From IMG/VR virus record IMGVR_UViG_2920693923_000001, positions 64,001 to 128,000 of that record: a stretch of 64,000 nt of DNA; one strand, given 5' to 3'. Below the pieces are notes generated by a model. The model was not told the origin of the DNA. It ran no database searches and worked only from the letters and a program-made list of their open reading frames with translations. The stretch is from a virus. Taxonomy: Duplodnaviria > Caudoviricetes. Each line of letters begins with the position of its first letter. The stretch's first letter is position 1. Shown in pieces: positions 10,839-58,807 of this stretch. The position numbers and the translations under genes were made by a program.

Positions 10839-12866
10839 GAGGAAAACAGAAATGGAAAATACAGTACGGTTATATACATATCAGGAAGCAGTACATATAT
10901 ATAAGAAGAAACAGGCTCGTAAAAAGGCAAAAAGGAAGGCAATCATCAAACGGAAATTAATCTGGTTATTACGTGCAAATTGGACATTGCTTACCATCGT
11001 GCCAATGATATTTATATCAAAATGGTGTTTTGATGGTTCACCAGATTACATATTATACATGATTGTATATAGTTTCTTATGTATATTATGTTGCTACGGA
11101 CATGTAAAGGGATATTAAAGCAGAAAGAAAGGATGGTTATTTTATGAATCCAGATTATGAACAAATTAAACATATAGCGTTAGAGAATGTAATGCAGAAA
11201 AAGAACAGAAAGGCAGTATATGATTTTCAGTGCCTCCACGCAGGAAAACATTGCAATAGAAAACGGAACAGAAAATAAAAGAGAATAAATGGATATTTCA
11301 TAGTGAAAGGCAGGTAAAAGTTATGTATAAATGGATGTATGACAGAGTTGTAACGGAACATAGTAAAAAGTCAAAAGAAGAACTTGCACAGGAGATTATG
11401 GCATTAGAAAAAATTGAGTGCTCTGATAGATGCTTTGCAAATGAATGCCAGGCAGGGGCGACTATCTATAATATCAATGAGTTATTTTCAGCATTGAAAG
11501 AACTGAAAGCGGGATTTACATATGAAAAAGCTGCTAAAGTTTATGAGTTGATGGAATCAGCGGAGAGTAGTTGGAATTATATTAAAAGAGAAATTTCTGC
11601 AATGAATGATAATTCAAGATGTAATAAGGTATTAGAAGATTTTAAAAACAAAGTTGCCAACGCAACTGATAGTAATGATAGTATCTGAAATGCGTGTTTC
11701 ATATGGAAAGGAGAAAATAAAATGAATGAATCATTATTAGCATTATTGAAAAAAGAGGATGGTCTTGTAAGAGATGTACGGTTAAATAAGGAAACTTATG
11801 AGATGTTGAGAGATAAAAATAAGCATCTTGCATCTGAATATATGGGAAAACTAGAAGAGTCTAAAGAGGTGCTTTTGGAGTGTCGAAAAGAAATCTCGCA
11901 GTATTTGGATTTTTTGGAGGTTTTAAAAGAGAGCTAAATTCGCATTTCAAAGGAAAGGAGCAAATTATGAATAGATACTTAGTTGTGTGGTTAAGAGAAG
12001 GCAGAGAGAATGTTGATGTCATTGATAATGCTATCACTCCGCATGAAGCAGCTAATAAGGTAAGAGAAGTGCATGTAAATGCTAACGTAGTAGCAGTAGG
12101 CATTATGTTAGACAACGAACAGTGGAATTACTTGTAGTAGTTGAAACTAAGATTTACAGGGAAAAGGAGTGATAATATGTGGAATACACCACATTCAAAA
12201 ACAGGATGGAATTTAGGAACAGAAGATGAATCTATAGAATATTTTACATTAAATGGTGTAACTTGTTATCATGATTTATTAATAGATAAATATTATGCTT
12301 TTCTTGGAATAGCAGGTGATAGAAAAGTAGAATTTGAAACTATAAAAGATTTACAAAATGGAGTGAATTGGCATCCAATGAGTGTGAATTATAAGAAGGA
12401 GTGAAGGCATATGAATATTAAAGAACAAAAGGCAGAAGCGCGAGACAGAAACGATTTAATAGATCACTTAATCAAGCTCATTGAATCAGATGATAAGCGG
12501 TATTCGTTTGAGTGGTCATGTGGTAATGCAATGGAAATTTTTGATAAAGAAAAGGAAGTCGGATATGTGTTACACATTGATAAGATTGAATATGATGTAG
12601 ATGGAAATGCAACTAATTTATAACGATTGGAGTGATTAAGATAAATAATAAACCATGTGCAATTGCAGTACGAATTTATGATGAAAATGGAATTACAAAG
12701 GCAGATGTAAAAACTTCTCCATGTGATGGTTTGAGAACAGAAACAATTATCTGGACTAAACTAGATGAGCGAGAGCGGTTTTATTATAATGGGTATACGT
12801 TGTATTATGATGAACGAATCAAAAATACAAAACCTTTTGCAGAAATTAAATAATAACGCAAATCAA

Positions 12867-22938: not shown

Positions 22939-25427
22939 GGTTAATTCCTCCGATAGAGGATAGTATAACAGAATATTAAAAGAAAGAAAAGGTGGTTGAT
23001 GAATATGTTCGGTGGACTGTTAGCGTTCTTAGGTATTTATGGAGCAAGTGCTGCAAAGGCAGCTAAAGATAACTATGATATGAAGAAAACTACTCGTACA
23101 GTTGATGAAAACGGAAATGTTCATTATATGGATAGACTTTGCAATGATTACATCAATGGAGAGCAAGTAAAGAGAGTTGAAACAACAGACAGGAACGGAG
23201 TTAAATTATATTCTACAGTTGGTGTTAATAGCAGTAAGGTGTACGACACTTCTTATGGAAGAGGTACACAGCAGTTATTTGCAATGAGTGAACATGATAA
23301 ACAGGAAAATCTAAAATACGGAAAAAATGTATATAGTCAATACAATCCATATTTCGGAAAAACTGTTACAACTGAAATTAGTTCAGGCAGAACAATTACT
23401 TGTTTGTTTAGTGGGAAGAATCAAAAGACTGGCAAAGAGTTCTATAGAGTATGGTATTTCCGTCCAGAATGTCAAGGAAAGCTTGATTATAATACGACTG
23501 TTGATGGCGATATGGGAATTGAAATTACAAAAGAAGAATTTAATAAGTTAAATTTTGGAGCTTTGACATGTACATGTATGCCAAGTGATTATGATGTAGT
23601 CCATGCATTATGGGGTGATAGGTAATGAATAAACAGAGAAGAGAAAAGATAAGGCAACTCAAAACTCAAATTGATTTGATTAAAACTGATTTGAAGAAAG
23701 TTTCAAGCGAGTTGTCTTCTATATTAAGTGAAGAACAGGATACATTCGATAACATGCCGGAAGGATTACAAAGTAGTTATAGAGGAATGTGTTCTGAAGA
23801 TGCTATTGATAATATGGAAGGAGCGAACGAGAAACTTGATGAAGTGATTGAGTTGTTGAATGATATTGTGTAGAATGGAAACAAGTAAATAATAGTTTCA
23901 TTTGAAGATTGGAGGTAAAAAATATATGAAATATGGAGATATAGTTGTATATAAAAATCAGATTGGAACAGTAGTAAAAAGCGAAAATGATTTTAAGTTC
24001 CATCCGTGTAATTATGGAAGTTGCTATTTTAGCGAGTTAAATACAATTACAGACGAGGATGTAAGAGAAGCAACACATGATGAAAAGTTGGAACTGATAG
24101 AAAAAGAATTTACATGGGGCAATGTGATTAAAATACATTACATTGGAGAATATCAGATTGTAGAGTATATTGATAAAAGAGATAAGAAAACATTTTATCA
24201 CGGATACATTAACTACAGCGATATAAATCGTTCGTACTCATCTCTTGATTCTGCATTGATTGGATGTATTGGATACAAACGTGAGGGTGGAAATGGTAAA
24301 GCTGCAATGTATTTTGATAAAATGATTGGTTTGGAATAAATTTATTAGAAGATTGGAGAATAAAAATATGATTTGTTTAGATTGCGGAAATATGGATATT
24401 CGATATGATGAAAAAGAGAAATCATATCATTGTAATAATTGTGGTTCGAGAAATATTGGTACAAGAAAAGAAGGGTGTAAATATATGCTAGGAAATGGAT
24501 TGTGTGGTAAAAATCCTGCATGTACGTCATCTGGAAAATGTGAAGCACCATGTAGCTATTATGAAAAATAGTAGGAAACCAGAAATGCAAATTAGCCAGG
24601 ATGAGTTTTTAGAGTTGTGTAAGGAAGCTGGAATTAAATAGATTGGAGAGTGAATGACATGTTATATACAATAGTACATACAGTAATTAATAATAGAGGA
24701 GAACACCCAGAAGCAAACGCAAGAGTGCTTGGAATATTTTCTGATAGAGAAACCGCAATCCAAGAAGCTGAGAAATGGATTGACAACACAAAAACATCTG
24801 ATGTAAATATTAAGAGAGTAACGGAAACTGAATGGTATTTCTGGTATGAAGAAAACGGAAATACTTATGGTGGATATGTTAATGTGTATGGAAATGAATT
24901 AGATAAGAAAGTAGTGTAGAAAGGAGCATGATTGTATGAATAGCAATTTTAGGGAATATAAAGGATATGTAATAAAAAAGATAACTATTCACACAGTAAA
25001 TGGTGCTTGTCTTGCATCATATGAAGTATATGCAAATAAATATAAAGATAGATTATGGATCGGAGATAAATTGAAAGATGCAAAAGCATGGATTGACAAT
25101 AACGGAAATAAATTAGATGAATTTTAACAAACAAGTCTTATTAGAAAGGAGAAAATATTATGACGAATTATGAATTGATTAAGAACATGAGTATTGAAGA
25201 TATGGCAAAGATGAATGTAAGAGCTTTTCATTATATGGGTGGATATAGAGCACAGACTGATTTTTATACAACGGATCAGCACATATTTGATACAAGAGAA
25301 GAAGCAGAGAATTATGAGTTGGAATGGTTGAAGTCGAATGAAGATATTGATACATTCAATACAATTACTTTAAAAAAATAACGATGTAATTAAATTTAAC
25401 TTTTATGTGCAATGTTAATACATTGTA

Positions 25428-25456
25428 TTGACAAAGGCAAAAATGGAGAATATAAT
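25428..25456 (+). promoter_or_regulatory. Consensus sigmaA promoter of the TA operon
   Basis: TTGACA-17-TATAAT. Confidence 0.85.
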
Positions 25457-25480
25457 AATATTAAGAAAGGAGTGATATAT

Positions 25481-25798
25481 ATGGCAAATACAAATGTAAC
25501 AATGAGAATTGATGAAGCACTGAAAGTACAATTACAGGAACTGATGTCTAATCTTGGAATGGATATGACTACTTTCTTTACAATGGCTGCTAAACAAGCC
25601 GTAAGAGAACAGGCTTTACCATTTCATCCTGATATGAATACGGGAATATATGGTTTGAAATCATATCAGTTAGCAATGAAAAATACAAATTACAATAAAG
25701 AAGGGAAAGCAACAATATCTTCTGTTGACGATTGGGCAACCGAATCAGAATGGGATGATATGTTTGAGCAAATGAAAAAAGAAAGAGGTATCGAATAA
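25481..25798 (+). CDS. RelB/DinJ-family antitoxin
   Basis: MANTNVTMRIDEALK...LGMDMTTFF...AVREQALPF. Confidence 0.85.
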   Translation: MANTNVTMRIDEALKVQLQELMSNLGMDMTTFFTMAAKQAVREQALPFHPDMNTGIYGLKSYQLAMKNTNYNKEGKATISSVDDWATESEWDDMFEQMKKERGIE

Positions 25799-26133
25799 TG
25801 AACAAAGGAGAAGTGTGGTTTGTTGAATTTCCGTTAGAAGAAGATCCAAGTAGAATACTGAATAGACCTGTTGTTGTGCTTGATGAAAATTTACTTGGTG
25901 TATTATCTGTCAAGATAACAAAGCATAAGGCAAGAAAAGAAGATCCTTATGATACTCCTATTATCTATTGGGAAGAAGCGAGTTTGAGATTGGCTTCAAC
26001 TGCGAGAGTATCAAAAGTAACGCTACTTACAAAAGATAGCTTTATATTCAAAATCGGTGATTTACACAAAGATGATTTGAATAGAATTGAAAACATGTAT
26101 AGAAAATTTTTAGAAGATAATGGTGCTGTATAA
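25798..26133 (+). CDS. PemK/MazF-family toxin
   Basis: KGEVWFVEFP...RPVVVL...ITK; TAATG coupling to the antitoxin. Confidence 0.85.
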   Translation: MNKGEVWFVEFPLEEDPSRILNRPVVVLDENLLGVLSVKITKHKARKEDPYDTPIIYWEEASLRLASTARVSKVTLLTKDSFIFKIGDLHKDDLNRIENMYRKFLEDNGAV

Positions 26134-27265
26134 ATTATAGCACCATTACTTATTAAAACAGAGAATATTAAAGTAACAAGAAACCAAGTTTTCTTGTGAC
26201 ATGGAGGTGTTTATAATTGATATATCGTTTACCCAGAACGGAAATATTTAATAATTCAAACAAAATTATTTTTGAAAGTATAAATTTTGGAGAAATTATA
26301 ATAGATAAGACAAAGAAGATAATAATTAATAATGATGTGGATATTACTGACAAAATAGATAAACTATTTTGCGGAAACACATTAGATTATAATCTTGCGA
26401 CAGTTTTACATAAAATATTACATAACAAAATTGATGAAAAATGCCGAGATTATTTACGGAAATTTGATAAAGTAACAGTAAAATAAAAAAGAAATCTAAG
26501 TTTACTATGGAAGGAGAATATCATGATGAATAATTTTTTATTAACGTATTCTGTTCCAGATCTAAATGGAATGGGTAGAATAAACATGTACAAATGGTTT
26601 GAGAATGAAGACGAACTTCATAGTTTTGTAGTCAAAGAGAAAAATTTGTATCAAAATGGTTTTATAGTTAATGAAGCAATGGAGATTTTGAATGACCGTC
26701 AAATTTTTACTGGCGGTGATTTGCCAAAAAGAAATTGAAATTTAACTTTCCTTGGAGGTGATATGTCATAAAAGAACACAAAAAGCAATGGATACTCAAT
26801 TATATGTCACAACATAAAGATGAGTTTATTGATATTGTATCAGAGAATTTTGTAAACGCATATATAAATGAGTTTAATCCGAAAATAGTAGAATGGTATC
26901 TATATGGAGCGCCGAAAGTTCCTGAAATTGGTAGGCTGCTCGCAGAATTATACAAAGAGAATAAAGTAAGTAGATATAGGCATTATTGCGAATTTTGGCA
27001 AGACGGATATCCAAAATGGTTTTATATTTACTTTTTACAAGGATAAAAAGAAAGAATGATTTACTTGGAAGATTGGAAGAGGTGATATAGATGGATAGAA
27101 AACGAAATAATCCTACATGGTGTTGCGATCAAATTGAAGAGAAGATTAATGATTATAAAAGTTCACTTGCAGAAATTAAAGAAGAAGAAGTAAAAAGACA
27201 GTTGGAAATTGTAATTGATGATTTGGAAACAATTTTATATGGGTAGATTGGAAGAGGTGATATGA

Positions 27266-27931
27266 ATGAACAAAAAAGAAGAATTAAAAAGATTAATTGA
27301 CAATCCTTTAAAACCAAATGCAGTTGAATGGGCAATGGATTCTGAAGATGTTTTGTCAAACATGAATTTACTTTCACCAGAAACTAAAAATTGCATTAAC
27401 ACGATAAAAGATCATGGAGGTGCATTTAAGCAATATAATGATGCTCTTGTTGCTATTTTAAAACGGGCGTATAAATCTATTGCAAATGTAATAACTCCTC
27501 CACCAATTAAGTCAAGACATCAAGTGTTTGTTGCAATGTGCTTTGATGATGAAAGAGAACGTCTGTATAAAGATGTTCTTACACCAATCGTACAAGCTGC
27601 TAATTATTCTATCGTCAAGGTGAACGACCAAGAATACGAAGGTTCTATTATTGGAAAAATTGTGGATGATATAACTGACTCAACTATTTTAATTGCCGAT
27701 CTTACAGGGAATCGTGGTGGAGTTTATTATGAGCTTGGTATTGCCAAAGGATTGCAGCTTTGTAATCATCCAATAAGAACTATACTTACTTGTGATAAAG
27801 CATTTTTTGATGATGAAAAGGTTCATTTTGATGTACAAGGTGATAATATTATTCTTTATACATCTGACGAGGATTACAAAGAAAAATTATCTCGCAGAAT
27901 TCAATCATATAAAAATGAAATGAATGGTTAA
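27266..27931 (+). CDS. Nucleoside-deoxyribosyltransferase/TIR-like fold protein
   Basis: VFVAMCF...IVDDITDSTILIADLTGNRGGVYYELGIA...HFDV. Confidence 0.65.
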   Translation: MNKKEELKRLIDNPLKPNAVEWAMDSEDVLSNMNLLSPETKNCINTIKDHGGAFKQYNDALVAILKRAYKSIANVITPPPIKSRHQVFVAMCFDDERERLYKDVLTPIVQAANYSIVKVNDQEYEGSIIGKIVDDITDSTILIADLTGNRGGVYYELGIAKGLQLCNHPIRTILTCDKAFFDDEKVHFDVQGDNIILYTSDEDYKEKLSRRIQSYKNEMNG

Positions 27932-28601
27932 AATGACGATATCTTTGAAAAAGAGGGATATTATGTTTGATAATAAACAAGATAATAAAATTGAACTTAT
28001 AAGGAATTTATTCATTGCAGGTTCAAGTGCAATTCCTGTAGTTGGTGGTACTCTTTCTGTTTTACTAGATAAATATTTACCTAGTGCAATAGAGAAAAGA
28101 AGGACTGATTTCTTAAAACAATTAGAAATAGATTTTAATAAACTACCGTATGAAATAATTAATAGTTTGGAGTCAAATGAGTGTTTTTATTCTATTTTCT
28201 TAAAAGTTTTAAGTCAGGTAACATATGAACATAAAACAGAAAAAATAAATGCATTTAGAAATATCCTTATAAATTCAACGCTAATAACAGATATCGAATT
28301 CAATGAAGTGGAGTATTTTATTAAACTAATAAATTCTTTGTCGATAGATCAAATAAAAATATTACATCTATTTTATTTAAGAGATTATAAAAAGGAAATA
28401 GAATTTACTGATATTAACAAATTTATCGACAAGCATTGGAAAGTAGATCCATCATATCGTTGGAGTCTAGTAACAGAACTTATTAGAGATGGGCTTATTT
28501 CTTCTTCAATAGAACGGCAACATAAAAAAGGAAAGGGCATTCAATTATCAAAAATGGGAGAAGATTTTATAAATTACATATTTAACCCGGTTTCAATTTA
28601 A
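27924..28601 (+). CDS. Abi-alpha/DUF4393-like protein
   Basis: IPVVGG...EKINAFRNILIN...LSIDQIKIL and a C-terminal wHTH-like LSKMGEDFI. Confidence 0.45.
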   Translation: MVKMTISLKKRDIMFDNKQDNKIELIRNLFIAGSSAIPVVGGTLSVLLDKYLPSAIEKRRTDFLKQLEIDFNKLPYEIINSLESNECFYSIFLKVLSQVTYEHKTEKINAFRNILINSTLITDIEFNEVEYFIKLINSLSIDQIKILHLFYLRDYKKEIEFTDINKFIDKHWKVDPSYRWSLVTELIRDGLISSSIERQHKKGKGIQLSKMGEDFINYIFNPVSI

Positions 28602-28667
28602 TAAATATTTAGAAATGAAAAATTGCTTTCTTGTTGAAGGCGAATCAAATATAGAAATAAGCATTAG

Positions 28668-28692
28668 AAGCAGAAACAACTGCTTCTTTTTT
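28668..28692 (+). terminator. Intrinsic terminator
   Basis: GAAGCAG-AAACAA-CTGCTTC-TTTTT. Confidence 0.75.
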
Positions 28693-28693
28693 A

Positions 28694-28993
28694 TTGCAAA
28701 AAAATGAGGTGATAAACATGAAATGCAAAAATGGAAATCCAAAGCGAAGCAGTAGATTTATATGTTTGAAATGTATGCAACTTAATCCATGCGGATCAGG
28801 TATACAACGAGGTGGACATCAACGTGAAAAATATCATATTAAAGATTTGATGTGCTTATATTGTAAAGATGAGAAAGCAACTAAAAATATAGAAATCCGT
28901 TGGTGCGATAATTATGATGAAATTTATGCAAAAGCAATGGAAATCAGAGAAAAATATTATAAAGAAGATAATAATGATAGAAGGGTAGGTTGA
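28694..28993 (+). CDS. Zinc-ribbon protein
   Basis: CLKC...HIKDLMCLYC. Confidence 0.6.
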   Translation: MQKNEVINMKCKNGNPKRSSRFICLKCMQLNPCGSGIQRGGHQREKYHIKDLMCLYCKDEKATKNIEIRWCDNYDEIYAKAMEIREKYYKEDNNDRRVG

Positions 28994-30030
28994 TAAATAT
29001 GACACAGAGTAGAAATTATGCAAATAAGAAGGCAGGTTATGACACTGAGGGAGATCCATTGTGGAATATGGATGATATTAAGCGTTTAGTTGAATGGTTC
29101 GAGAAGCATAATGATTGGGATGGCTATTTAATAACGTTATTTGAGCTTTTGCTCGGTAGACGAATAGGTGATATCGTATGCTTGAGATGGTCTGACTTCT
29201 ACAAAAAAGATGGAAGAAAAGAAAATGAATTAAATCATTTTGTTGAGCAGAAAACAGGCAAAAATAATAAAATGCCGATCAGTAAAATGGTATTTGAGTC
29301 TATAGAAAATTATCTGGAGCATACCAAAATTGATCCTATGCAGCATTATGATGAGGAGATTTTCAAACATTCCGCTAAAGAAAAATGGAACAATATTGAA
29401 CATCAGTATTTTGCGAATGGGAAAAACACTATTACAAACGTTGATCATACAGTTGAAAATTGGATAAATATGTTCAATAGAGACTGGGGAGACAGAAGGA
29501 TTAAGAAAATTCAAGAAGGATTTAATGAACAATTAGGCAAACAATCGAGAAAATATGGTTGTTACGATGATATATTTGATTACATCCATTATGTAGTGGA
29601 ATTAAAGGACGCTATTAAATGGCATACGGATTCATATAGGAAGAGATTTAACCATGCAATTAGAGACATGAACCTGGATTATCGTGTAACAACACATGGC
29701 TTGCGTAAGAGCTTTGCATATTGGATTTATACAATGCACCAGTTTGATCCCAATTGTGTATATTCTATTCAGAAGATGTTTGGACATGTTAACGTATTAC
29801 AGACATATGACTATATGGGTGTTACCAAAATGAGAAACAGAAAATACATTGAAGATCATGGAGATTTTGTGCGGAATGTATTGGCAGGTAAGGGTGACGA
29901 AATTGTAAAGAATATGCCAGTCATTTCTTTAAAATCAGATGATTTTGGAAAGATTATTAGAATGCTTACTGATGATGTTGACAAATATCAAAAAGCAATT
30001 AATATGGCAAATGAAATGAGAGTTGTGTAA
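28990..30030 (+). CDS. Tyrosine recombinase/integrase
   Basis: LLGRRIGD (R), EQKTGK (K), HGLRKS (HxxR), MFGH, TYDY (Y); all catalytic residues present. Confidence 0.9.
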   Translation: MINMTQSRNYANKKAGYDTEGDPLWNMDDIKRLVEWFEKHNDWDGYLITLFELLLGRRIGDIVCLRWSDFYKKDGRKENELNHFVEQKTGKNNKMPISKMVFESIENYLEHTKIDPMQHYDEEIFKHSAKEKWNNIEHQYFANGKNTITNVDHTVENWINMFNRDWGDRRIKKIQEGFNEQLGKQSRKYGCYDDIFDYIHYVVELKDAIKWHTDSYRKRFNHAIRDMNLDYRVTTHGLRKSFAYWIYTMHQFDPNCVYSIQKMFGHVNVLQTYDYMGVTKMRNRKYIEDHGDFVRNVLAGKGDEIVKNMPVISLKSDDFGKIIRMLTDDVDKYQKAINMANEMRVV

Positions 30031-30299: not shown

Positions 30300-30395
30300 G
30301 GTATAAGTTGATTATAAGTTGCTATAAGTCTTGTGTCAATTATTTAAAAAAACTGATACAAACCTGTTGACAAGTTGATAGCAACTTGCTATAAT
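30300..30395. promoter_or_regulatory. Divergent promoter region with AAGTTG operator repeats
   Basis: TTGACA(30367)-17-TATAAT whose spacer is the palindrome CAAGTTG..CAACTTG; TATAAGT x3 at 30302-30329. Confidence 0.8.
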
Positions 30396-30427: not shown

Positions 30428-30778
30428 ATGAATATTAATACATTTGATATTCTATTAATCAATTTTGGCAAAGTAGAATTTGATGGAGAGCAAGCTGGCA
30501 TAAGACCTGCAATAGTTATACAAAATACACTTGGAAACAGATTTAGTGATACAACTATAGTAATACCATTTACTACTAAAATAAAGAATATTGATCAATC
30601 TACACATTCTCTTTTTATGAGAGGAACTGGCGGTTTAACACAAAGTTCAATGTTATTAGGGGAATGTGTTAGACAAGTTTCCAAACAGAGAATAATAAAG
30701 AAGATTGGTTCAATTAGTGATAGGGCGACTAAATTGGAAGTTAAAAGAGTGTATGAATCAAACTTCGGGGAGGTGTAA
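30428..30778 (+). CDS. mazF: PemK/MazF-family endoribonuclease
   Basis: GEQAGIRPAIVIQNTLGNRFSDTTIVIPFTT. Confidence 0.85.
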   Translation: MNINTFDILLINFGKVEFDGEQAGIRPAIVIQNTLGNRFSDTTIVIPFTTKIKNIDQSTHSLFMRGTGGLTQSSMLLGECVRQVSKQRIIKKIGSISDRATKLEVKRVYESNFGEV

Positions 30779-31358: not shown

Positions 31359-31431
31359 TGGGCTGTGGTGAAGCGGTTAACACCCCAGATTTTGACTCTG
31401 GTATTCGTGGGTTCAATCCCCACCAGCCTAG
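31359..31431 (+). tRNA. tRNA-Gln (UUG)
   Basis: Acceptor TGGGCTG/CAGCCTA, anticodon arm CCAGA-TTTTGAC-TCTGG, T-loop GTTCAATC; no encoded CCA. Confidence 0.85.
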
Positions 31432-32813: not shown

Positions 32814-32889
32814 CTATATAAGGACTAATTGTTAAGTAATTAAAAACATAGAAATATGTATACAAACATAGGCAAAAGTGAACACATTA

Positions 32890-33135
32890 AATCTTTTGTT
32901 TTATGGCTTAACAATAGGTTTCAAGTCTAAGTGACTGCTACTATTGAAAAATATGTTGCAGATATGAACTATGTTAAGTAGTAAGGTAAAAACACACCTT
33001 TAGATGTAATCTTCAGTCTGAAGCTCTGTGAGTACAAACCAAGAAACAATGCTAATGTTCTGCATTGATAACAGGGAAATACATGTCCTCTACTCGACCT
33101 TGACACGAAGAAAAATTCTCCGAAAGGAAGGTGTC
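32890..33135 (+). ncRNA. omegaRNA/HEARO-like RNA of IscB (boundaries approximate)
   Basis: Lies directly upstream of iscB; HEARO-like blocks CTATGTT, CACC..GATG..CAGTC..GCTCTGTG and CCTTGACACGAAG. Confidence 0.7.
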
Positions 33136-33139
33136 AGAA

Positions 33140-34378
33140 ATGACAAATTATGTTTTTGTATTGGATGCTGCCGGCAAACAGTTAGCCCCAACAAAAGAAA
33201 CAAAAGCATGGTTTTTTATCCGTAAGGAACATGCAACATTGGTTAGTAAATATCCAATGGTAATACAACTGAATAAAGAAGTTTCAGATGACGAAATCTG
33301 TAAAGATGAGATTCGTTGTGGAATTGATGACGGTGGACTTCATGTGGGTATTGCTTTAGTTCAGAAATGTCAAACAAAAAACAAAGTGGTTTTTAAAGGA
33401 ACGATTGAACAACGCAATGATGTAAAACATCTTATGGATGTCAGACGTGGATGCAGACATTATCATCGTTATCATAAACGGTATAGACAATCAAGATTCA
33501 ATAATCGCTCTTCGTCAAAAAGAGGAAGAATTGCTCCAAGTATTTTACAAAAGCGTCAAGCCACAGTAAGAGTTATAAATCAGCTTAATAGATGGATACA
33601 TATAACAAATTATTGGTTGGAAGATGTTTCTATTGATATACGAGCATTAACCGATAGTTATAAATCTTATAGCTGGCAATATCAAAAATCTAATAGGCTG
33701 GATGAAAACATCCGTAAAGCAGTGATTCTAAGAGATGAGTGTAAATGTATGGAATGTGGAAAATCTAATTGCAGATTAGAAGTTCATCATATAAGACCGA
33801 GAAGATTAAATGGCTCAAACACACTTAGTAATCTTATTACATTATGTGAAAAGTGTCTTCAGAAAACAGAAGGTAGTGAAGAACTATTTATGGATAAATA
33901 TTTCTCTCTGTTAAAATCTTCTGATAATAAAAATCTTAATTATGCTCAACATGTAATGATTGGTAAGAAATGGCTTAGAGAACAATTGTCAAATTTAGGA
34001 TTATTATATCTGACAAATGGTGGAGATACAGCAAATAAACGTATTGACTGGAATATTGAGAAATCACATTCTAATGATGCTATATGTATCACTGATTTAC
34101 AACCTGATACATGTGATGTAAAAGAATGGACTATTAAACCTATGCGTAGACAGAGTAAAGCAAAAACAGATAATGTTTTAGGAATCAAGCATAGGGATTT
34201 AGTAGAATATACATTCAAAAATGGTGAAACTCATAAAGGGTATGTAACGGCGTTGTATCCAAAACAAAACGCAATAAATTTTCAAAGTCCTACAAAACAT
34301 TGTAAGAAAGTTAATGCAAAGAAATGTAGGTTACTTTGGAAATTTAATAAAATATATTGGTTAGATAATGTGTCTTGA
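33140..34378 (+). CDS. iscB: IscB RNA-guided endonuclease (OMEGA)
   Basis: PLMP-like VFVLD..GKQLAPT, RuvC-I GIDDG, Arg-rich helix [10 protein letters not shown], RuvC-II LEDV, HNH EVHHI..GSN..NLITLC, RuvC-III KSHSNDA. Confidence 0.92.
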
Positions 34379-34436
34379 ACACATTTGTCTATATTTGAAC
34401 ACAATTACTTATATTTAATCAAGGAGGAAGATATTT

Positions 34437-36546: not shown

Positions 36547-36618
36547 TGGGTTATAGCCAAGCGGTAAGGCACAGGACTTTGACTCCTGCATTCGCTGGTT
36601 CGAATCCAGCTAGCCCAG
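36547..36618 (+). tRNA. tRNA-Gln (UUG)
   Basis: TGGGTTA/TAGCCCA acceptor, CAGGA-CTTTGAC-TCCTG anticodon arm, GGTTCGAATCC. Confidence 0.92.
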
Positions 36619-37110: not shown

Positions 37111-38123
37111 AAAAAATTCTTTTCTTTGGAAAACTAGGAGGTTTACAGATGGAAATGTTAAAAGAATATTCAGAAAAATACGGATTAAAAGAAGTGGTAA
37201 ATGATTATGGAGAGCATCGCCAGACACGAGAAAGAAGCATTGTATTTCCGAATGGATGGGTTGCTTCTATTGTAGAAAATAATGGTGTTGATACATATAA
37301 GCCAAACGGAGAACACATAAAAGAATTTAAGTCGGATAAGAACTATTCTGTTGCAATGTGTGATTACAATGGATACTTCGATTGGGATATTCTTAATAAA
37401 TATGGAGCAATTGATGGATGTATTTATTGTGACACAGAACTTGAACTACTGGTTGCTTGTGAGACAATCAGGAGATTATAGAATGGTGTGCTTTTTTGGA
37501 TTGTGAGGTGAAAAGATGAGTATTGTGTTATTCGCAATGATTGGAGCTGCCATAAAAGCAGGTATAGACTATTGGATTTGTTATGGAGTGTATTGTACAA
37601 TTGCAGTTTTGAAAATGATAATAAATTTGGTAGAGAATAATTAACAGTAAAGTTCGATTTCATATGGAAGCGAGGTGAAAGTAGATAGTGTCAAAAGGAA
37701 AGAAATTTAACGCTGCCGAAAAACATTTTGAGAAAAAATGTGTAGAGTGGCGAAAGAGGATAAAAGAATTAGAAGAAACGAATAAGCTTCTACACAAACG
37801 AATAAGCGATAACTGTGATGAAATAGAAAAATTACAGATGAAAAATGAATGCTTAGAACAACAGAACCAAGTGCTTATGGAATTAAAAGATATGTCTGTT
37901 GATGATGTTAAAACCTTGATTGCATCAAAAGAGTCAGTTAATAAATTGTCTGGATTGTTTGATGCAATGTCAAAGAGAATGTTTTAACAAGAAAACTTCG
38001 TTTCATTGTAAAAAATTTCTGAGCGATTCAGCTCAATAAAATTCCCAAATTAAAAAGAGAATATAGATATGTAACCAATTAACATTCATATATAAAAATT
38101 ATAGAAAAGGAGAGTACAAACAG

Positions 38124-40724
38124 ATGAATGGATTGAGTAGTAAAGAAGTTCTCAAAAGTAGAGAGCTTCATGGAAGTAATAAGCTTCCTGAACCAAAGTT
38201 GGACAAGTGGTATGACTTCGCAAAGGAGGCATTAAGTGAGAAAATCACAATGATTCTTATTGCAATTGCGGTATTGCAGTTATTCCTTGGAGTCATGGGA
38301 GTAATGGATTTGTCAGATCCAATTATGATTCTTGTCGTATTAGCAATTGTAACATGTATTGCTGTTAAGACTGGACTTGGTGTTCAGAAATCAGCAGCAG
38401 AGTTGAGAGCCAAAACATCAGTCAGGTATTGTGATGTAATTCGTGATGGTAAAGTTCAAACGATTAACAAGGATGAACTTGTAGTTGGTGATCTCGTTTG
38501 TATAGGAATGGGACAAGAGATTTTTGCAGATGGTTATCTCATTGAAGGTAAGATTTCTGTAAACAATGCAGCTATTAACGGAGAAACAAAAGAGTGCAAG
38601 AAAACACCAGTTGAAGGATACGTTCATAAGAAAACTACTTCAACAGATGCTTATACGAATCAGAATTGTTTATTCGCTGGCACAACAGTAATGTCAGGTG
38701 AAGGAAAGATGATTGTCACCGATGTAGGTGTGAATACAGTAAATGGTGATACACTCGTTAAAATGCAAACACTTGAAGCACCAAAGACAGCACTTGATAT
38801 TGCACTTGATAATCTGAGCGACTTCATTTCTAAGTGGGGAACAATCGCAGCCGTTATTACATTTGCAGTGCTTACAATTTCAGGAATTGCACAGGTTGGA
38901 TTTGGAGAATATTTTAGCGGTGGCGTTCTGAATATTATTCAGAAGATCGCACAGAACTTCTCAGTAGCATTAACAATTATTGTAGCTGCTGTTCCCGAAG
39001 GATTGCCTCTTATTGTAAAACTTGTAACAAAACAGAATGTAAAGACAATGGAGAAATTCAATATTCTTGCTAAGAATCCTGGTAAAATTCCAGAGTTAGC
39101 ATATGTTGATATTATCTGTACTGATAAGACAGGTACTCTTACGACAGGTATTATGACTCCAAAGAAGATTATTGATGGCTTTGGTAATGATGTAAATAAG
39201 GATTCAGTTCTTTGGAATAATATCAAGGCAAACATTTCTTTAAATAATAGTGCAACATTTGATTCAGAAAACAATATTACAGGTGGTAATTCAATTGATA
39301 GAGCAGTTCTTAGCCTTGTAAATCCTGAAACATATGCTGACATTCAGAAAAAATATCCAGTTAAGTTAAAGCAGGTATTTAATAGTAGCAATAAGTATTC
39401 AGCTTTTACGACAAAGGATGGAGTTACATACTATAAAGGCGCACCTGAGAAACTGATTGAGCATTGCACAAAAGTAATGGATTCAAGTGGTGAAATTATA
39501 GAGAATAACGACAATGACACATTAAGTAATGCAATTACAGCGATGACAAGTAATGCGATGAGATGCATTGCAGTTACAATGGCAGATGGCGATTTAGTAG
39601 AGAATGAAATACCAAATGACATGACATTCCTTGGAATTATCGGTGTTGTAGATCCTGTAAGAGATGAAGTACCGAGTGCAGTAAAAACAGCACATAAGGC
39701 TGGTATTCAAGTTGTTGAAATCACAGGCGATTGTATTGAGACAGCAGTTGCAGTTGCTACAGAGTGTGGAATTTACAAAGATGGAGATTTAGCACTTACA
39801 AATGATGAATTTGAAGCGATGTCAGATGATGAAGTAAAGAGTATAATTCCTCGATTGAGAGTTATTTCAAGATGCTCACCAAACACAAAACTCAGACTTG
39901 TCACATTAGCACAAGAGATTGGAAAGTCAGTTGCAATGACAGGTGATGGTGTAAATGATAGTCCTGCTTTAAAGAGAGCTGATGTTGGTTTTGGTATGCA
40001 AGGTGGATCAGATGTAGCAAAAGAAGCTTCAGACATTGTATTGACAGATGATAACTTTGCAAGCGTTGTAAAGGCAGTAGAACTTGGAAGAACATTTATG
40101 CACAATATTATGATGTTCCTTGAATTTCAGTTACCTATCAATATTTCACTTCTGATTCTCAGTGTTATCTATCCAATGATTGCAACAGGTGCATTACTTG
40201 CATCGGTTCAGATTCTGATTGTAAATATCATTATGGACTCTCTTAATTCATTATCATTTGGTGGCGAACCTCCAAAGGATGAATATATGACTGAGAAACC
40301 TATTAAGAAAGGTTCTGGCTTATTCATCAGAGGTGCAAAGAAACGTATTGCATTAAGTACAGTAGCATTTATTGCACTTTATGGAATTATTACATTCAGT
40401 CCTATTGCAAATATGTTTGCATCTGAAACAGAAGCTATGACAGCGAGATTCGCATTGTTATGCTTTATGGCAGTATTTAATGGATTTAACATTCGTACAG
40501 AGCATATTAATTTGTTCAATGGTATTGGGAAGAACAAACTGTTCTCAGCCATTGCAATCGGAATTTTTGTAATGACTTTTGCTCTTTGCAACTTTGCAGA
40601 AAATCTTATTAAGGTTACAGCTTTAGATTTCAAACATTGGGTAGTAGTTGTAATTCTAGCGTTTATGGTTATTCCAATTGATCTTATTAGAAAGATTATT
40701 AAGAAGAAAAGAGAGAATAAGTAA
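38124..40724 (+). CDS. P-type (P2, Ca2+-type) ATPase
   Basis: VPEGL, DKTGTLT, KGAPE, ITGD, TGDGVND; about 10 TM segments. Confidence 0.95.
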   Translation: MNGLSSKEVLKSRELHGSNKLPEPKLDKWYDFAKEALSEKITMILIAIAVLQLFLGVMGVMDLSDPIMILVVLAIVTCIAVKTGLGVQKSAAELRAKTSVRYCDVIRDGKVQTINKDELVVGDLVCIGMGQEIFADGYLIEGKISVNNAAINGETKECKKTPVEGYVHKKTTSTDAYTNQNCLFAGTTVMSGEGKMIVTDVGVNTVNGDTLVKMQTLEAPKTALDIALDNLSDFISKWGTIAAVITFAVLTISGIAQVGFGEYFSGGVLNIIQKIAQNFSVALTIIVAAVPEGLPLIVKLVTKQNVKTMEKFNILAKNPGKIPELAYVDIICTDKTGTLTTGIMTPKKIIDGFGNDVNKDSVLWNNIKANISLNNSATFDSENNITGGNSIDRAVLSLVNPETYADIQKKYPVKLKQVFNSSNKYSAFTTKDGVTYYKGAPEKLIEHCTKVMDSSGEIIENNDNDTLSNAITAMTSNAMRCIAVTMADGDLVENEIPNDMTFLGIIGVVDPVRDEVPSAVKTAHKAGIQVVEITGDCIETAVAVATECGIYKDGDLALTNDEFEAMSDDEVKSIIPRLRVISRCSPNTKLRLVTLAQEIGKSVAMTGDGVNDSPALKRADVGFGMQGGSDVAKEASDIVLTDDNFASVVKAVELGRTFMHNIMMFLEFQLPINISLLILSVIYPMIATGALLASVQILIVNIIMDSLNSLSFGGEPPKDEYMTEKPIKKGSGLFIRGAKKRIALSTVAFIALYGIITFSPIANMFASETEAMTARFALLCFMAVFNGFNIRTEHINLFNGIGKNKLFSAIAIGIFVMTFALCNFAENLIKVTALDFKHWVVVVILAFMVIPIDLIRKIIKKKRENK

Positions 40725-40933
40725 TTGAGGAGATGAGAACATGGTAATGAGAGATAAAAGTTATAAAACAGTAGAGATTATTACTCTTATATGTTTTTCA
40801 ATTAGTGTTATTACAGTATGTATTACACGCTTTATTCCATTTATTTTTCTGATATTACTCACATTCCCAATTTCTTTTAAATTATTAAAAGGGAAGGTTG
40901 ACAGCCTTCCCAAGAATAAGGAGGACAAAAAAT

Positions 40934-41512
40934 ATGTCAATTAGTTTAGTTAAAGGTCAGAAGATTGACCTTACAAAAGGCAATGCAGGTTTAAACAAAG
41001 TCGTATTTGGTCTTGGATGGGATACAAATAGATACGATGGTAATGCAGATTTCGATTTGGATGTATCAGCATTTTTTACTGATGATTCAGGAAAGGTAAC
41101 AGGCGAACAGGATTTTGTATTTTATGGTCAGCCACAGCACCCAAGCGGAGCATTGATTTATTCTGGCGATAATAGAACAGGTGTAGGTGATGGCGATGAC
41201 GAGACAATGATTGTTGAGTTAAATAAGATTCCATCTAATATTACAAAGATTAGTTTCTCAGCGACAATTTATGATGCAGAAAATCGTTTACAGAATTTCG
41301 GAATGGTTGATAATTCGTACATTAGAGCATACAACGCTGATACAAATGAGGAACTTTTCAAATATGAACTTAATGAGGATTTCTCATTAGAGACAGGTGT
41401 TATTGCAGGTGAGTTGTATCGTAAGAACGGTGAATGGAAGTTTAATGCAGTTGGTTCAGGTTACAATGGTGGTTTAGCTGCTATTGGTAGAAATTTTGGT
41501 TTGGATTTATAA
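40934..41512 (+). CDS. terD: TerD-family protein
   Basis: SLVKGQ, GLGWD, DLDVSA, GDNRTGVGDGDDE, GEWKFNAVG. Confidence 0.95.
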   Translation: MSISLVKGQKIDLTKGNAGLNKVVFGLGWDTNRYDGNADFDLDVSAFFTDDSGKVTGEQDFVFYGQPQHPSGALIYSGDNRTGVGDGDDETMIVELNKIPSNITKISFSATIYDAENRLQNFGMVDNSYIRAYNADTNEELFKYELNEDFSLETGVIAGELYRKNGEWKFNAVGSGYNGGLAAIGRNFGLDL

Positions 41513-41530
41513 AATGGAAGGAGAATATAT

Positions 41531-42106
41531 ATGTCAGTAAATTTAGTCAAAGGACAGAAAATTAATTTATCTAAGGAAGTAGCAGGTGGTCTTACAAAGA
41601 TTATGGTAGGACTTGGATGGGATGCTGTTAAGAAAGGATTATTTGGCTCTAAGCCAAACATTGATTGCGATGCTTCGGCAATTATTTTGGGAAAAGATGA
41701 TAAGTATCGTACATGTGTTTATTATGGTGACAGATCAGCGGAAGACAGATGTGTGTATCATCATGGCGACAACCTCACAGGAGATGGAGACGGTGATGAT
41801 GAGCAGATTACAGTTGATCTTGCGAATATTACAAATAAGGTTGAGAAGATTGTATTTGTAGTAAATATCTATGATTGTATTTCAAGAAAGCAGGATTTTG
41901 GACTTATCAAGAATGCGTACATTAGACTTGTTGATGAGTCAACTGGTAAGGAAATTTGTAAATACAATCTTTCAGATGATTATGCTGGCAAAACAGCAAT
42001 GGTATTTGCAGAGGTTTATAAGAAAGACGGAGAGTGGAAATTTAACGCTATCGGTCAGGGAACAAATGATTCAAGTATTAGCGAATTAACAAGAAGATAC
42101 AAATAG
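41531..42106 (+). CDS. TerD-family protein (TerZ/YceC-like)
   Basis: GLGWD, GDNLTGDGDGDDE, GEWKFNAIG. Confidence 0.92.
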   Translation: MSVNLVKGQKINLSKEVAGGLTKIMVGLGWDAVKKGLFGSKPNIDCDASAIILGKDDKYRTCVYYGDRSAEDRCVYHHGDNLTGDGDGDDEQITVDLANITNKVEKIVFVVNIYDCISRKQDFGLIKNAYIRLVDESTGKEICKYNLSDDYAGKTAMVFAEVYKKDGEWKFNAIGQGTNDSSISELTRRYK

Positions 42107-42118
42107 GAGGATTTAATT

Positions 42119-42700
42119 ATGTCAGTTTCGTTAAGTAAAGGACAGAGAGTAGATTTAACAAAGGGTAGACCGTCATTAAAAAACATTCTTGTTGGACTTG
42201 GATGGGATATTAATCATTATGACGGAGAAGCAGATTTTGATCTCGATGCCTCAGTGTTTATGACAAAAGAGAATGGCAAGGTTGGCAAGGATGAGGATTT
42301 CATTTTCTATGGTAATCTTGAACATAGTTCAAAGAGTGTAAAGCATATGGGAGACAACCGTACAGGTGAGGGAGATGGAGATGATGAGGTTATTAAGATT
42401 AAACTTGATAAAATCCCATCAGACTATGAGACTCTTGCTGTGACGGTTACAATTTATGATGCTGAGAGCAGACTTCAGAATTTCGGTATGGTTGGAAATG
42501 CATATGTGCGTGTAGTAGACGAAGAGACAGGCGAGGAACTTATTCGTTTCGATTTAAGCGAAGACTTCTCTACGGAGACTGCGTTAGTCGTAGCTGAAAT
42601 TTATAAACATAATGGCGAATGGAAGTTTAAGGCTGTAGGAAGTGGCTATAATGGTGGATTAAAAGCATTATGTAATCAGTATGGAATTGATGCAGAGTAG
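42119..42700 (+). CDS. terD: TerD-family protein
   Basis: GLGWD, DLDASVF, GDNRTGEGDGDDE, GEWKFKAVG. Confidence 0.95.
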   Translation: MSVSLSKGQRVDLTKGRPSLKNILVGLGWDINHYDGEADFDLDASVFMTKENGKVGKDEDFIFYGNLEHSSKSVKHMGDNRTGEGDGDDEVIKIKLDKIPSDYETLAVTVTIYDAESRLQNFGMVGNAYVRVVDEETGEELIRFDLSEDFSTETALVVAEIYKHNGEWKFKAVGSGYNGGLKALCNQYGIDAE

Positions 42701-42709
42701 GAGGACTGT

Positions 42710-43459
42710 ATGACAAATTTTATGTTTATTGTAATTGTGGCGATTGTATTAATTGCACTGGTTCTTTTCTTTACTCCTTTTGGTAAACAGCTTCGAGTAA
42801 AGTTTAAAGGAAGAACGGATGAAGTAATGCGTCAGGATGCACAGACACCAGAAGGTGCTAGAGATTATTACAACGCAGCTATTAGAGAAAAGGAAGATTT
42901 TTATAACAGGGCATCTGCTACATATGCTGAAATCTCAGGAAAACGTGATACAGCAGAAAAAGACTTGTATCAGGCGAATAAAGATATTATGCGTGTTACA
43001 CAGCAGATTAACGCTTGTCTTGATGAAAACAAAGAGGATGAGGCAATGCAGTATGCAATGAAGAAGTCTACTTTGGAGAATAAGATTAATGTACTAAAAG
43101 ATACAATCGAAGAGATGAAAGAAGCACAGGCTCACCAGAAAGACATTCGTGATCAAGCAGCCGAAGAATTGCAGAAACTTAAAGAGGAAAAGGAACAGGT
43201 TCTTTTTCAGATGGAAGCCGATAGCCAGATTATTGAACTTCATCAGAGTATGGATAGTCTTAATACGAATAATGAGAGCGATAGAATGCTTGAAAGAGTT
43301 CGTGAAGGCGCAAGAAAGACAAGAGAACGTGCAGAAGGAAGTAGAATTGCATATGATTCTAGCGCACAGGCTAATGAGAGAAGACTTGCTAATTCTGAAA
43401 GAGAGCGTAATGCTCGTCAGATCCTTGATGATATGAAGAGACAGAGAGGTAATAAGTAA
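42710..43459 (+). CDS. PspA/IM30-like coiled-coil protein with an N-terminal TM helix
   Basis: TM helix, TPE..YNAAIRE, long coiled coils, EDEAMQYA. Confidence 0.65.
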   Translation: MTNFMFIVIVAIVLIALVLFFTPFGKQLRVKFKGRTDEVMRQDAQTPEGARDYYNAAIREKEDFYNRASATYAEISGKRDTAEKDLYQANKDIMRVTQQINACLDENKEDEAMQYAMKKSTLENKINVLKDTIEEMKEAQAHQKDIRDQAAEELQKLKEEKEQVLFQMEADSQIIELHQSMDSLNTNNESDRMLERVREGARKTRERAEGSRIAYDSSAQANERRLANSERERNARQILDDMKRQRGNK

Positions 43460-43640: not shown

Positions 43641-44107
43641 TATAAATTGTATTAGAAAGAAACGCACATTTCTTGCGGAATTTTGGAGGTGAAAAACATG
43701 AAGATAATTGGCTGGGAAAGAAAAGGTAATGTAGTTAAATTTGCGTTGGGCGATAATCATTTAAAGGATTGGAGTGGCGATGATTGGAATGATGCTCCAT
43801 ATGAACATAATGCATGTACAACTCCTTTATTTGGCATTGAAAAATACTTAGAAGTTGCATTTACATATGAATCATCAATATTAGAACCATGTGATGATTA
43901 TAATTATCACGGTAATTCTCCGTTTTGTATGGATGATTTTAAGGAAAGAAAAGTGCCATTTATGATAATTGATACGACTGGAGAAGAGATGTATTATTCG
44001 AAAGCATTATTGAACAATAAAAATGCTTTTGTTTTTATGGGTGATAATATTGATAAAATTCAATGGGATAAACTCAATGGAACAATTATAGGATAATGAG
44101 GTGAGCA

Positions 44108-56841: not shown

Positions 56842-58066
56842 GATTTTTTCAAGTGAGGTTAGAGGATAAATGGACAAAAAAAATTAAAAATAAATTAATT
56901 GAATGGGTAAAGAACAATTATAGTCCAAAGGCATGTGGATATACAGAAATGAGATCTTCTGGAAATGAATCCGATGTATTTTGTGACGGATATGATTGTG
57001 GCATATCAAACGCTGCATATGAAATTGGTTGTATTCTTGGTATGAAATTAAAAGAACCTGAAGAGCAGGACTATGGCTTCTAAAATTTAAATGAAATTTT
57101 TCTTTCCCTTGGACAGATTGGAGGTGTGAAATGAAAAAGTATTATAGACAAGTAATCGCATTTCTTTTGGTATGGTTTTGTAGTGGTATAACGATGTATT
57201 CATATCAAGTAGAAAATAAAATACTTGGAATTACTTTTACATTTTTAAGTTTTTTATATTGGTTCATTATAGATAAAGATGATTAGGAGAATAAGTACAT
57301 GACACAATTACCAAAAACAAGTTGTAGTATTCCGATGCCAGAAGTTATAGCTATTCGTGACACTAGAATTATTGCAAAAATTAAGTTATGTGGTGGTGCT
57401 GTAACGATTAATGTTAATGAAACAATGGCATGGAAAAAACCAACTGATGAGCAGATTAAAAATTTACACGATTTATTCTGTATTGATGTTGAAATATTAG
57501 ACAGGGGAGAATAACATTATGAAAGCATATTTAGTAGAGCGACCTGCAAGTGGTTGGTGTCAAGATTATGTAATGGTAATTATCGCACAAGATGAAAGAC
57601 ACGCTGAAAGAAAAGCAAGAGTAAGTTCAGATGACTTCAAGAAGTGTCAAGAGATTACCATTACAGAAATTGATATGAATGAAGAACAGTGTGTTTTGAC
57701 AGCAAATACAGGTGCATAGGAGGATAGTAACATGAGAACAGAGAATATAGAAGTAACATTTAAAATTCCAATTCCAGTTGATAAACCTGATTTGAACGGT
57801 GTCATATATTCCAAAGAAGCAATTAGAAATGCTTATAAAAATGTAAAGGATGTTCCGATTGAAATGTCATGTAGTGATGGTCAGTTTCTTCCTATTGGAG
57901 TAGCACAGGAAGTTGAGTTAATTGAAGACGAAGATGGTATGTATATTACAGGCGTTGGTCTTGTTTGGCATGGTGGTACAGAAGAAAGTGTTGAAATTAA
58001 GGATAGTAAGGTAACTAGCTTTAAAGTGAATGGCATTGGAATTGTAAAAGAGTAGGAGATAAAGAT

Positions 58067-58807
58067 ATGGATAATTTAACACACAGAGAAGAAGTAAATC
58101 TTTATGAAGCAATTCAAAAATCGTTTCCTAAAATTCTAATCAAAGATCTTACAGAGCATGAAAGAATTTGTCCTGTATGTAATGGTCTTGGAATGAGAAT
58201 TGAAGACAATGTTTATGGGATTAAAGGTGACAACTCTGAAGCTGGTAGAAAATACCATTTTCCATATAAGCATCAAGCACTTTCGTTTTGTCAGAGTTGT
58301 TATAACGGAGTGCAGCGATTGTGTCCTTATTGCGGAGAGCCTTATAAAAATCAGGCTTATTTACATTGCGACTGTGAAGGACAGAAGAAAGTTGACGAAG
58401 AAGAGAGAATAAAGAAGTGGAATGATAAAGTATCTAAAGCAGTTCCAGTTGATGAAAAAGATGTAAGCACAATGCTTTACTGTGAGGAATTTGACGAGTA
58501 TTACGCCACTGTTGATGATTTCTTTGATGATTATGCATGTAATCATGAAGAAGATAGTGAAGAAGATAGCGATGAAAGACCCGTAAGATTATGGGTAACT
58601 TCTGTTGAGACGATTTCTATTGATGCAACCAATGTCATTGAAAATGCTTGTAGCGATTTACATGAAAATGCATATGAACGGTGTGATGAGGGTTCTTTAC
58701 AGAAATTATTGGATGATTGGTGTAAGGAACAGACAGGAACAACTACATATTATCCTTGTTTTAAGCAGTATGTAGAGATCGATTGGAGTAAATATTCAGA
58801 GGAATAA
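58067..58807 (+). CDS. Protein with DnaJ-like zinc-finger repeats
   Basis: CPVCNGLG, CQSCYNG, CPYCG. Confidence 0.55.
   Translation: MDNLTHREEVNLYEAIQKSFPKILIKDLTEHERICPVCNGLGMRIEDNVYGIKGDNSEAGRKYHFPYKHQALSFCQSCYNGVQRLCPYCGEPYKNQAYLHCDCEGQKKVDEEERIKKWNDKVSKAVPVDEKDVSTMLYCEEFDEYYATVDDFFDDYACNHEEDSEEDSDERPVRLWVTSVETISIDATNVIENACSDLHENAYERCDEGSLQKLLDDWCKEQTGTTTYYPCFKQYVEIDWSKYSEE

Follow-up and report, generated by a model that had tools for sequence, protein, structure and literature searches.

The window considered here is a stretch of 64,000 nucleotides, bases 64001-128000 of the 159,903-bp record IMGVR_UViG_2920693923_000001 (IMG/VR class provirus; 33% G+C), and the question it raises is why short palindromes with a six-base centre recur between its genes. 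The genome encodes a portal, a terminase, and a large DNA polymerase, and past ~7.6 kb of the window its genes are nearly all small and on the plus strand. A sequence-only reading had proposed that eight palindromes bracket functional modules, that these modules are cassettes of an integron-like array, and that the densest run of sites ends just upstream of a recombinase gene. All eight palindromes are where that reading placed them, and among relatives genes are gained, lost, and replaced with ends at such sites. The explanation favoured here, with a probability of roughly one half, is that the sites are protein-bound linkers acting as short-homology crossover joints.

An exact site is defined as GAAA-N6-TTTC and a relaxed site as [GT]AAA-N6-TTT[CAT], the six-base centre being termed the “address”. 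Exact sites among the eight lie at 26180-26193 (GAAA-CCAAGT-TTTC, the sole site here extending to an 8-bp dyad), 26737-26750 (GAAA-TTTAAC-TTTC), 28617-28630 (GAAA-AATTGC-TTTC), 37991-38004 (GAAA-ACTTCG-TTTC), and 43659-43672 (GAAA-CGCACA-TTTC). The others are GAAA-TCTAAG-TTTA at 26491-26504, GAAA-GAATGA-TTTA at 27050-27063, and TAAA-TTTAAC-TTTT at 25391-25404, in which both arms are degenerate. The window has 11 copies of the exact form where 3.3 would be expected (standard deviation 1.8), a count reached by 0 of 100 shuffles, and all 11 are intergenic. Control patterns with mirrored arms, swapped arms, or N4, N5, N7, or N8 spacing give 0-1 intergenic matches, and the relaxed form is 7x denser between genes than within them. 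The genome as a whole has ~22 exact sites and its relatives 24-42, compared with 2-11 for a control pattern. Each site follows the stop codon of the previous gene (often 0-6 nt off) and precedes the ribosome-binding site (RBS) of the next. Since 25.5-28.6 kb contains no strong promoter beyond the one that precedes it at 25428 and an intrinsic terminator at 28666-28687 (plus strand) marks the operon end, the sites there sit inside an operon.

The positions beyond the arms carry modest, symmetric information (A at -2, W at -1, W at +1, and T at +2), apart from a G at +5 that has no mirror partner. The consensus is A-W-GAAA-N6-TTTC-W-T, a dyad of 14-18 bp with an information-bearing arm of 4-6 bp, and the 4-6-4 geometry sets the half-sites one helical turn apart. 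Across 160 distinct copies the half-sites show independent symmetric preferences, and the positions flanking the arms show no pairing covariation above independence. Folding is no better than in shuffled sequence for six of the seven sites folded, 26180 alone forming a stem. This pattern points to double-stranded sites for a symmetric dimer, neither an RNA element nor a folded attC. Two other identities were considered and rejected. An RNA or single-strand hairpin is ruled out by the folding test and the lack of pairing covariation, and no Rfam family matches the sites, the known RNAs of 22-46 kb being two tRNAs only. Promoters are ruled out by a promoter scan that places none at the sites; the consensus promoters of 22-32 kb lie only at 25428, 30339, 30367, and 31121.

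Relatives were collected via the window recombinase, 7 and then 24 related loci. Stretches of 80 kb were read from seven relatives, so that eight genomes including this one entered the detailed comparison, while 28 near-complete relatives formed the set for recombinase type and site counts. Only ~1/3 of the region is alignable between any two genomes. The addresses are shared nonetheless, with 3-23 centres in common per genome pair against 0.2-0.4 expected. Their order is CAAGAG, TGAGGA, CGATGA, CGGAAA, TAATAG, CCAAGT, TCTAAG, TTTAAC, GAATGA, TGACGA, and AATTGC, then the recombinase gene, then ATTCTC, GTTCGA, ACTTCG, and CGCACA. This order, from CAAGAG to CGCACA, recurs in 24 loci, including loci whose recombinase is only 35% identical, and is collinear in most genome pairs, the remaining pairs having a few out-of-order matches. 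The fixed-order addresses are kept across >30 related phages while the intervening genes differ. At least 166 contigs in IMG/VR are related to this gut prophage, and portal identity is at least 90% in the best 80 of the 166; with so close a backbone, the conservation of addresses is less deep than it appears. This makes the addresses orthologous linkers of a tight clade with a very large accessory-gene pool.

Gene content between the addresses varies, and many open reading frames (ORFs) are restricted to one genome. Of 338 shared-spacer pairs, 193 have unrelated sequence on both flanks, and identity around a site usually stops 3-8 nt off the arm's inner edge. The TTTAAC address is one example, its 30 instances combining 15 left-flank with 15 right-flank families. 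At informative junctions, homology breaks at 26 of 27 exact sites and 30 of 42 relaxed sites, compared with 117 of 234 junctions that have no site (Fisher 8e-7 and 0.012, respectively, for data points that are phylogenetically non-independent). Blocks shared with one relative, G2, end at sites (26180-26506 and 26737-27102), those shared with another, G3, start at 26737, 28616, and 37985, and further block ends fall at 11688-11708, 15075, 57090, and 62955-62958. A block of ATPase, Ter, and PspA-like genes is present or absent as a whole unit between the ACTTCG site (its left end) and the CGCACA site (its right end). No inverted segment was found among the eight genomes.

The sequence-only reading had proposed that the interval at 25.4-26.7 kb could be excised between matching spacers. 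The sites at 25391 and 26737 do share the spacer TTTAAC, and have 12 identical bases, AAATTTAACTTT, in common. On its own, a matching spacer has no statistical significance (with 33 relaxed sites, P for one identical pair or more is about 0.24-0.33), and it is comparison with relatives that lends the pair its meaning. The empty-site allele that had been looked for exists: in three relatives (G4, G5, and G034), ORF73 is joined directly to ORF80 via a single TAAA-TTTAAC-TTTC. This hybrid, with its left arm as in site 25391 and its right arm as in site 26737, replaces 25404-26736, and homology begins at the right-hand copy in five relatives. A single TTTAAC site is present in 14 of 28 further genomes and the junction to the toxin-antitoxin (TA) pair in 0, so the two-copy state here, with 25391 as the left copy of the duplicated address, is derived. 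The pair is the only short-range identical-centre pair in the eight genomes, and the TA genes occur in 1 of 36 genomes compared, this one. The 1,346-bp block 25404-26736 (TA pair, ORF89, and ORF71) thus reads as a derived insertion between two TTTAAC linkers. In MT836025, an unverified record, a related antitoxin module directly adjoins the TAATAG address, so the antitoxin module is attached to two different addresses, each at the centre/right-arm border.

The view of these modules as cassette units holds in part. Units are swapped among relatives with their ends at sites, but some boundaries lie elsewhere. A TIR-like gene occurs without its Abi-like neighbour in G2 and G3, the boundary falling at 27934, where there is no site. 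The gain or loss of ORF51 falls between two copies of a 19-bp RBS repeat, AGATTGGAAGAGGTGATAT, and not at a palindrome. In the CGATGA slot, the leader ctgagtttagaaa is kept ahead of three different ORFs, which places the joint there at the RBS. One module stands behind TGAGGA in G1 and behind CGATGA in G5, joined at GATTTACT. Junctions of this kind, at RBS repeats or at GATTTACT between unlike addresses, fit a process that would be driven by homology and not be strictly site-specific.

In the favoured explanation, the palindromes would be double-stranded binding sites for a predicted symmetric dimer. They occupy linkers of 20-45 bp, from stop codon to next RBS, inside early-region operons. Each linker has its own six-base centre, orthologous clade-wide and in fixed order, and adjacent accessory alleles are unrelated in sequence, leaving the linker as the sole shared stretch. 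Because the linker is the only sequence in common, crossovers between co-resident relatives would fall at it, through short-homology recombination or template switching at the protein-bound site. Genes reassort one slot at a time with gene order retained, and the 1,346-bp block could be lost again through the 12 identical bases of its two linkers. The sites with their addresses and order, the reassortment, and the empty allele are observed; we infer both the binding of a protein to the sites and the mechanism of crossover.

Several points weigh against this explanation. The blocks of identity, at 12-20 bp, fall below the requirement of most homologous recombination systems. The regulator and Pfam searches found no site-binding protein: a search of the genome for Xre-type regulators gave a single HTH_3 gene (35.6 kb), unconnected to the sites, and Pfam, run on ten genes around the divergent region (window 2.6-11.7 kb), gave nothing DNA-binding. 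Breaks may be so frequent at sites because of selection on where units can be split, and not because the sites are hot spots. The 4-6-4 geometry also suits a recombinase core site, and a tyrosine recombinase of one type or another occupies the mid-array position in 28 of 28 genomes.

Those last two points bear on a tentative alternative, in which the sites would be heterospecific targets of a dedicated recombinase that binds the arms and exchanges strands in the six-base centre. The enzyme may be the mid-array tyrosine recombinase, of which there are two unrelated types, or the product of an Xer-like gene at genome 57 kb. Only sites with the same address may recombine, giving slot-by-slot cassette exchange without internal deletions, and the two TTTAAC copies here may delimit an excisable 1.35-kb unit. 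More tentative again is the fuller form of this alternative, with ~40 natural heterospecific targets, a mid-array recombinase exchanging only same-centre sites, and co-infecting or resident relatives trading single genes slot-wise without loss of gene order. A dyad with a 6-bp centre suits such an enzyme, as do the junctions at arm/centre borders (including the TA module on a different address in MT836025), an empty allele that is the exact reciprocal product, and a nearby same-centre site pair that is found in this genome only among the eight. The short conserved arms, only 4-6 bp, do not, nor do the module ends at RBS sequences and between different addresses, the 0 inversions among 8 genomes, or the junctions without a site, which break as well in half of cases.

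The recombinases themselves cut both ways. The window gene (28990-30030, plus strand), a variable gene that lies where the sequence-only reading put it, has all catalytic residues; R57, K88, H236, R239, H266, and Y275 (the catalytic R, K, H-x-x-R, H, and Y) are invariant in 12 recombinase sequences down to 35% identity. A structure model of its product (predicted local distance difference test score, pLDDT, 74) gave generic tyrosine-recombinase matches only, the top one being the integron integrase VchIntIA, a weak match (template modelling score, TM, 0.34). Its family is present in 11 of the 28 near-complete relatives and absent from the other 17, which carry a canonical Xer-like protein of 335-346 amino acids with undetectable similarity to it (E above 0.4); in five checked cases the replacement lies at the same map position, after TGACGA/AATTGC. 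Genomes with the window family average 35.0 sites and those without it 32.4 (controls 2-11). That sites, in their arms, number, and addresses, are unchanged across two unrelated recombinase types argues against the window enzyme as their specific partner. The presence of a recombinase in all 28 genomes keeps an enzyme-driven mechanism a contender. The simpler argument that the recombinase can be absent and the sites are thus independent of it is weakened, as the other type always substitutes.

Two more tyrosine recombinases are encoded in the genome: a 447-amino-acid gene near the right end, which is likely the integrase, and the Xer-like gene (G000 57181-58221). The latter lies 6.8-5.8 kb ahead of the window, where the structural region borders on the early region. 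Nearly all relatives have a gene of its class, but the alleles diverge strongly (27-98% identity). The genome encodes no serine recombinase, and no att repeats were found at the record ends.

It is improbable that the sites are purely regulatory, as operators, roadblocks, or stoperator-like elements without a role in recombination, and that boundaries coincide with them at the edges of gene units, where selection may purge recombinants with damaged sites. Such a role would accord with the number of exact sites at gene junctions inside prophage operons (~22 here, 24-42 in relatives), with the compatibility of the arm symmetry with a dimeric regulator, and with the breaks at 117 of 234 junctions that lack a site. 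In most cases, however, identity stops right at the arm edges on both sides, and the 15 x 15 combinations at one 14-mer, together with 96% breaks, are hard to obtain from random illegitimate events and selection.

The integron-like array, in which an adjacent recombinase would move promoterless cassettes via folded attC-like sites with a TA cassette as stabiliser, is very improbable and largely refuted: the recombinase adjoins the densest run of sites, its top structural match is, weakly, an integron integrase (TM 0.34), and an empty allele exists, but the sites are 14-18 bp and non-folding, their addresses and order are fixed, they continue beyond the recombinase and so flank it on both sides, that recombinase is missing from 17 of 28 relatives, where an unrelated type replaces it, and the TA pair, for whose stabilising role there is nothing in support, occurs in 1 of 36 genomes.

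The gene content that the sequence-only reading described was largely recovered, all on the plus strand. The TA operon starts with a perfect-consensus sigma-A-type promoter (25428-25456, TTGACA-17-TATAAT), immediately preceded by an AATGT..ACATT inverted repeat. The RelB-family antitoxin gene (25481-25798; PF04221, 25.3 bits, cut-off 22.4) has a possible alternative start at 25412, and its stop overlaps the start of the PemK/MazF-family toxin gene (25798-26133; PF02452, 30.8 bits, cut-off 23.1). A hairpin follows at 26108-26158 (-21.4 kcal/mol, z -8.6) with no T-run behind it. Adjacent RelB and PemK genes above Pfam cut-offs, with their own promoter, are characteristic of a type II TA system. 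Single ORFs lie between the next sites as listed: ORF89 (26217-26486), common to G2 only in a block that ends at both flanking sites; ORF71 (26523-26738), in none of the other genomes among the eight; and ORF80 (26804-27046; phrog_24457), the most frequent right-hand neighbour of the TTTAAC address. Upstream of ORF80, at 26755-26771, a strong RBS is followed by a mini-ORF of start, one codon, and stop (ATG TCA TAA), which is conserved in G4 and also in G5, where the middle codon differs. ORF80 matches its PHROG family without the first ~20 residues of that family.

Between site 27050 and the next listed pair lies an additional gene, ORF51 (27091-27246, 51 amino acids), which that reading had passed over. 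The pair itself consists of a TIR/nucleoside-deoxyribosyltransferase-like protein of 221 amino acids (27266-27931; PADLOC TIR effector 7e-7, Pfam Nuc_deoxyrib_tr 0.027) and a weakly matched Abi-alpha-like protein (27963-28601; Abi_alpha 4e-4, below cut-off). The ATPase-Ter-PspA block, correctly placed between the sites at 37991 and 43659, spans 38124-43459 with a P-type ATPase, a small ORF, three TerD genes, and a weak PspA-like gene; as a whole block it is shared with G3 only.

Some further features lie among or beside these genes. A second toxin-like module, a MazF-like gene (30428-30778), directly follows the recombinase, and a divergent pair of perfect-consensus promoters (30311-30395) stands before it and a small minus-strand ORF. 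The accessory genes include tRNA genes at 31359-31431 and 36547-36618. An insertion at 32825-34420 comprises a gene for a 412-amino-acid RRXRR + HNH (IscB-like) nuclease with ~300 nt of non-coding sequence upstream; it is missing in five relatives, where 32824 is joined directly to 34421, and AAGGA is present at both ends. A recurrent motif, ACAGAGAATATAA, adjoins several sites, before or after them (26155-26170 and 62938-62950), likewise stands to the right of sites in G2, G4, and G6, and could be a phage-specific promoter element.

In Botstein's modular theory of how phages evolve, exchangeable modules are joined by short conserved linkers. To our knowledge, clear examples of such linkers are rare. 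This abundant gut-prophage clade has dozens of individually recognisable, ordered 14-bp linkers around which unrelated genes reassort freely, and the mechanism of gene-by-gene mosaicism becomes directly testable in it. The sites mark the entry and exit points of defence, TA, and other cargo genes. Should the exchange prove to be enzyme-driven, the system would be site-specific and of a new kind, and exchange by a recombinase between same-centre sites would be a natural counterpart of engineered recombinase-mediated cassette exchange.

Among known systems, integrons resemble the region in having an array of small, mostly promoterless genes with recombination-like spacer sites and a tyrosine recombinase alongside. 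Integron attC sites are ~57-141 bp and fold as single-strand hairpins, and each integron cassette moves, with an attC of its own, to attI beside intI. The sites here differ in length (14-18 bp), in not folding (6 of 7) and having no flank pairing covariation, and in centres that are fixed in order, independent of the genes on either side. An integron also has an obligate IntI-type partner, whereas the window recombinase family is absent in 17 of 28 relatives at equal site density.

SPbeta offers another likeness, in that a prophage of this type has a repeated dyad to which a recombinase-like protein binds: MrpR, a repressor with a tyrosine-recombinase fold, binds the repeated element SPBRE and has lost catalysis (PMC10516654). 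The recombinase here differs in retaining every catalytic residue. As read from the SPbeta record, SPBRE is roughly ATACA-N7-TGTAT, in ~ten copies in promoters with one common centre. No relatives of YopP, YopQ, or YopR are detectable in this genome, and the window recombinase shows no similarity to them. Equivalence to SPBRE/MrpR is ruled out by the different sequence and placement, by this lack of similarity, and by a comparison with solved repressors, none of which gave a sequence match.

Stoperators of Cluster A mycobacteriophages are protein-binding sites of 13-14 bp, tens of them in short prophage intergenic gaps (PMC9283540, PMC6550527), and the sites here are likewise numerous in prophage gaps of that kind. 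Unlike the symmetric, clade-invariant sites here, a stoperator is asymmetric, points in the direction of transcription, and varies together with the immunity repressor; stoperators have no described role in gene exchange (PMC9283540, PMC6550527). A further parallel is found in the dif modules (pdif, XerC/XerD) of Acinetobacter plasmids, where accessory modules including toxin-antitoxin genes lie between two-armed sites with a 6-bp centre (PMC13141974, PMC6449649) and are shuffled among related replicons. A pdif site is 28 bp with two distinct 11-bp arms, compared with symmetric arms of 4-6 bp here, and pdif sites alternate in orientation, while the sites here are co-oriented, with no inverted segments among 8 genomes.

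The promoter-early stem-loops (PeSLs) of T4-type phages (Arbiol et al. 2010, PMC2839356; PMC4122927) complete the comparison. A PeSL couples a terminator stem-loop to a strong early promoter in ~50-60 bp, and its copies are alike, whereas the sites here are 14-18 bp, have individual centres in a fixed map order, and were found to have neither a promoter nor a stable stem. In both cases, short conserved intergenic elements stand between small non-essential genes of hyperplastic regions. Exchange between nearby PeSL copies can release small circles (PMC2839356; PMC4122927). As PeSLs do, the sites described here delimit genes that close relatives have gained, lost, or replaced.

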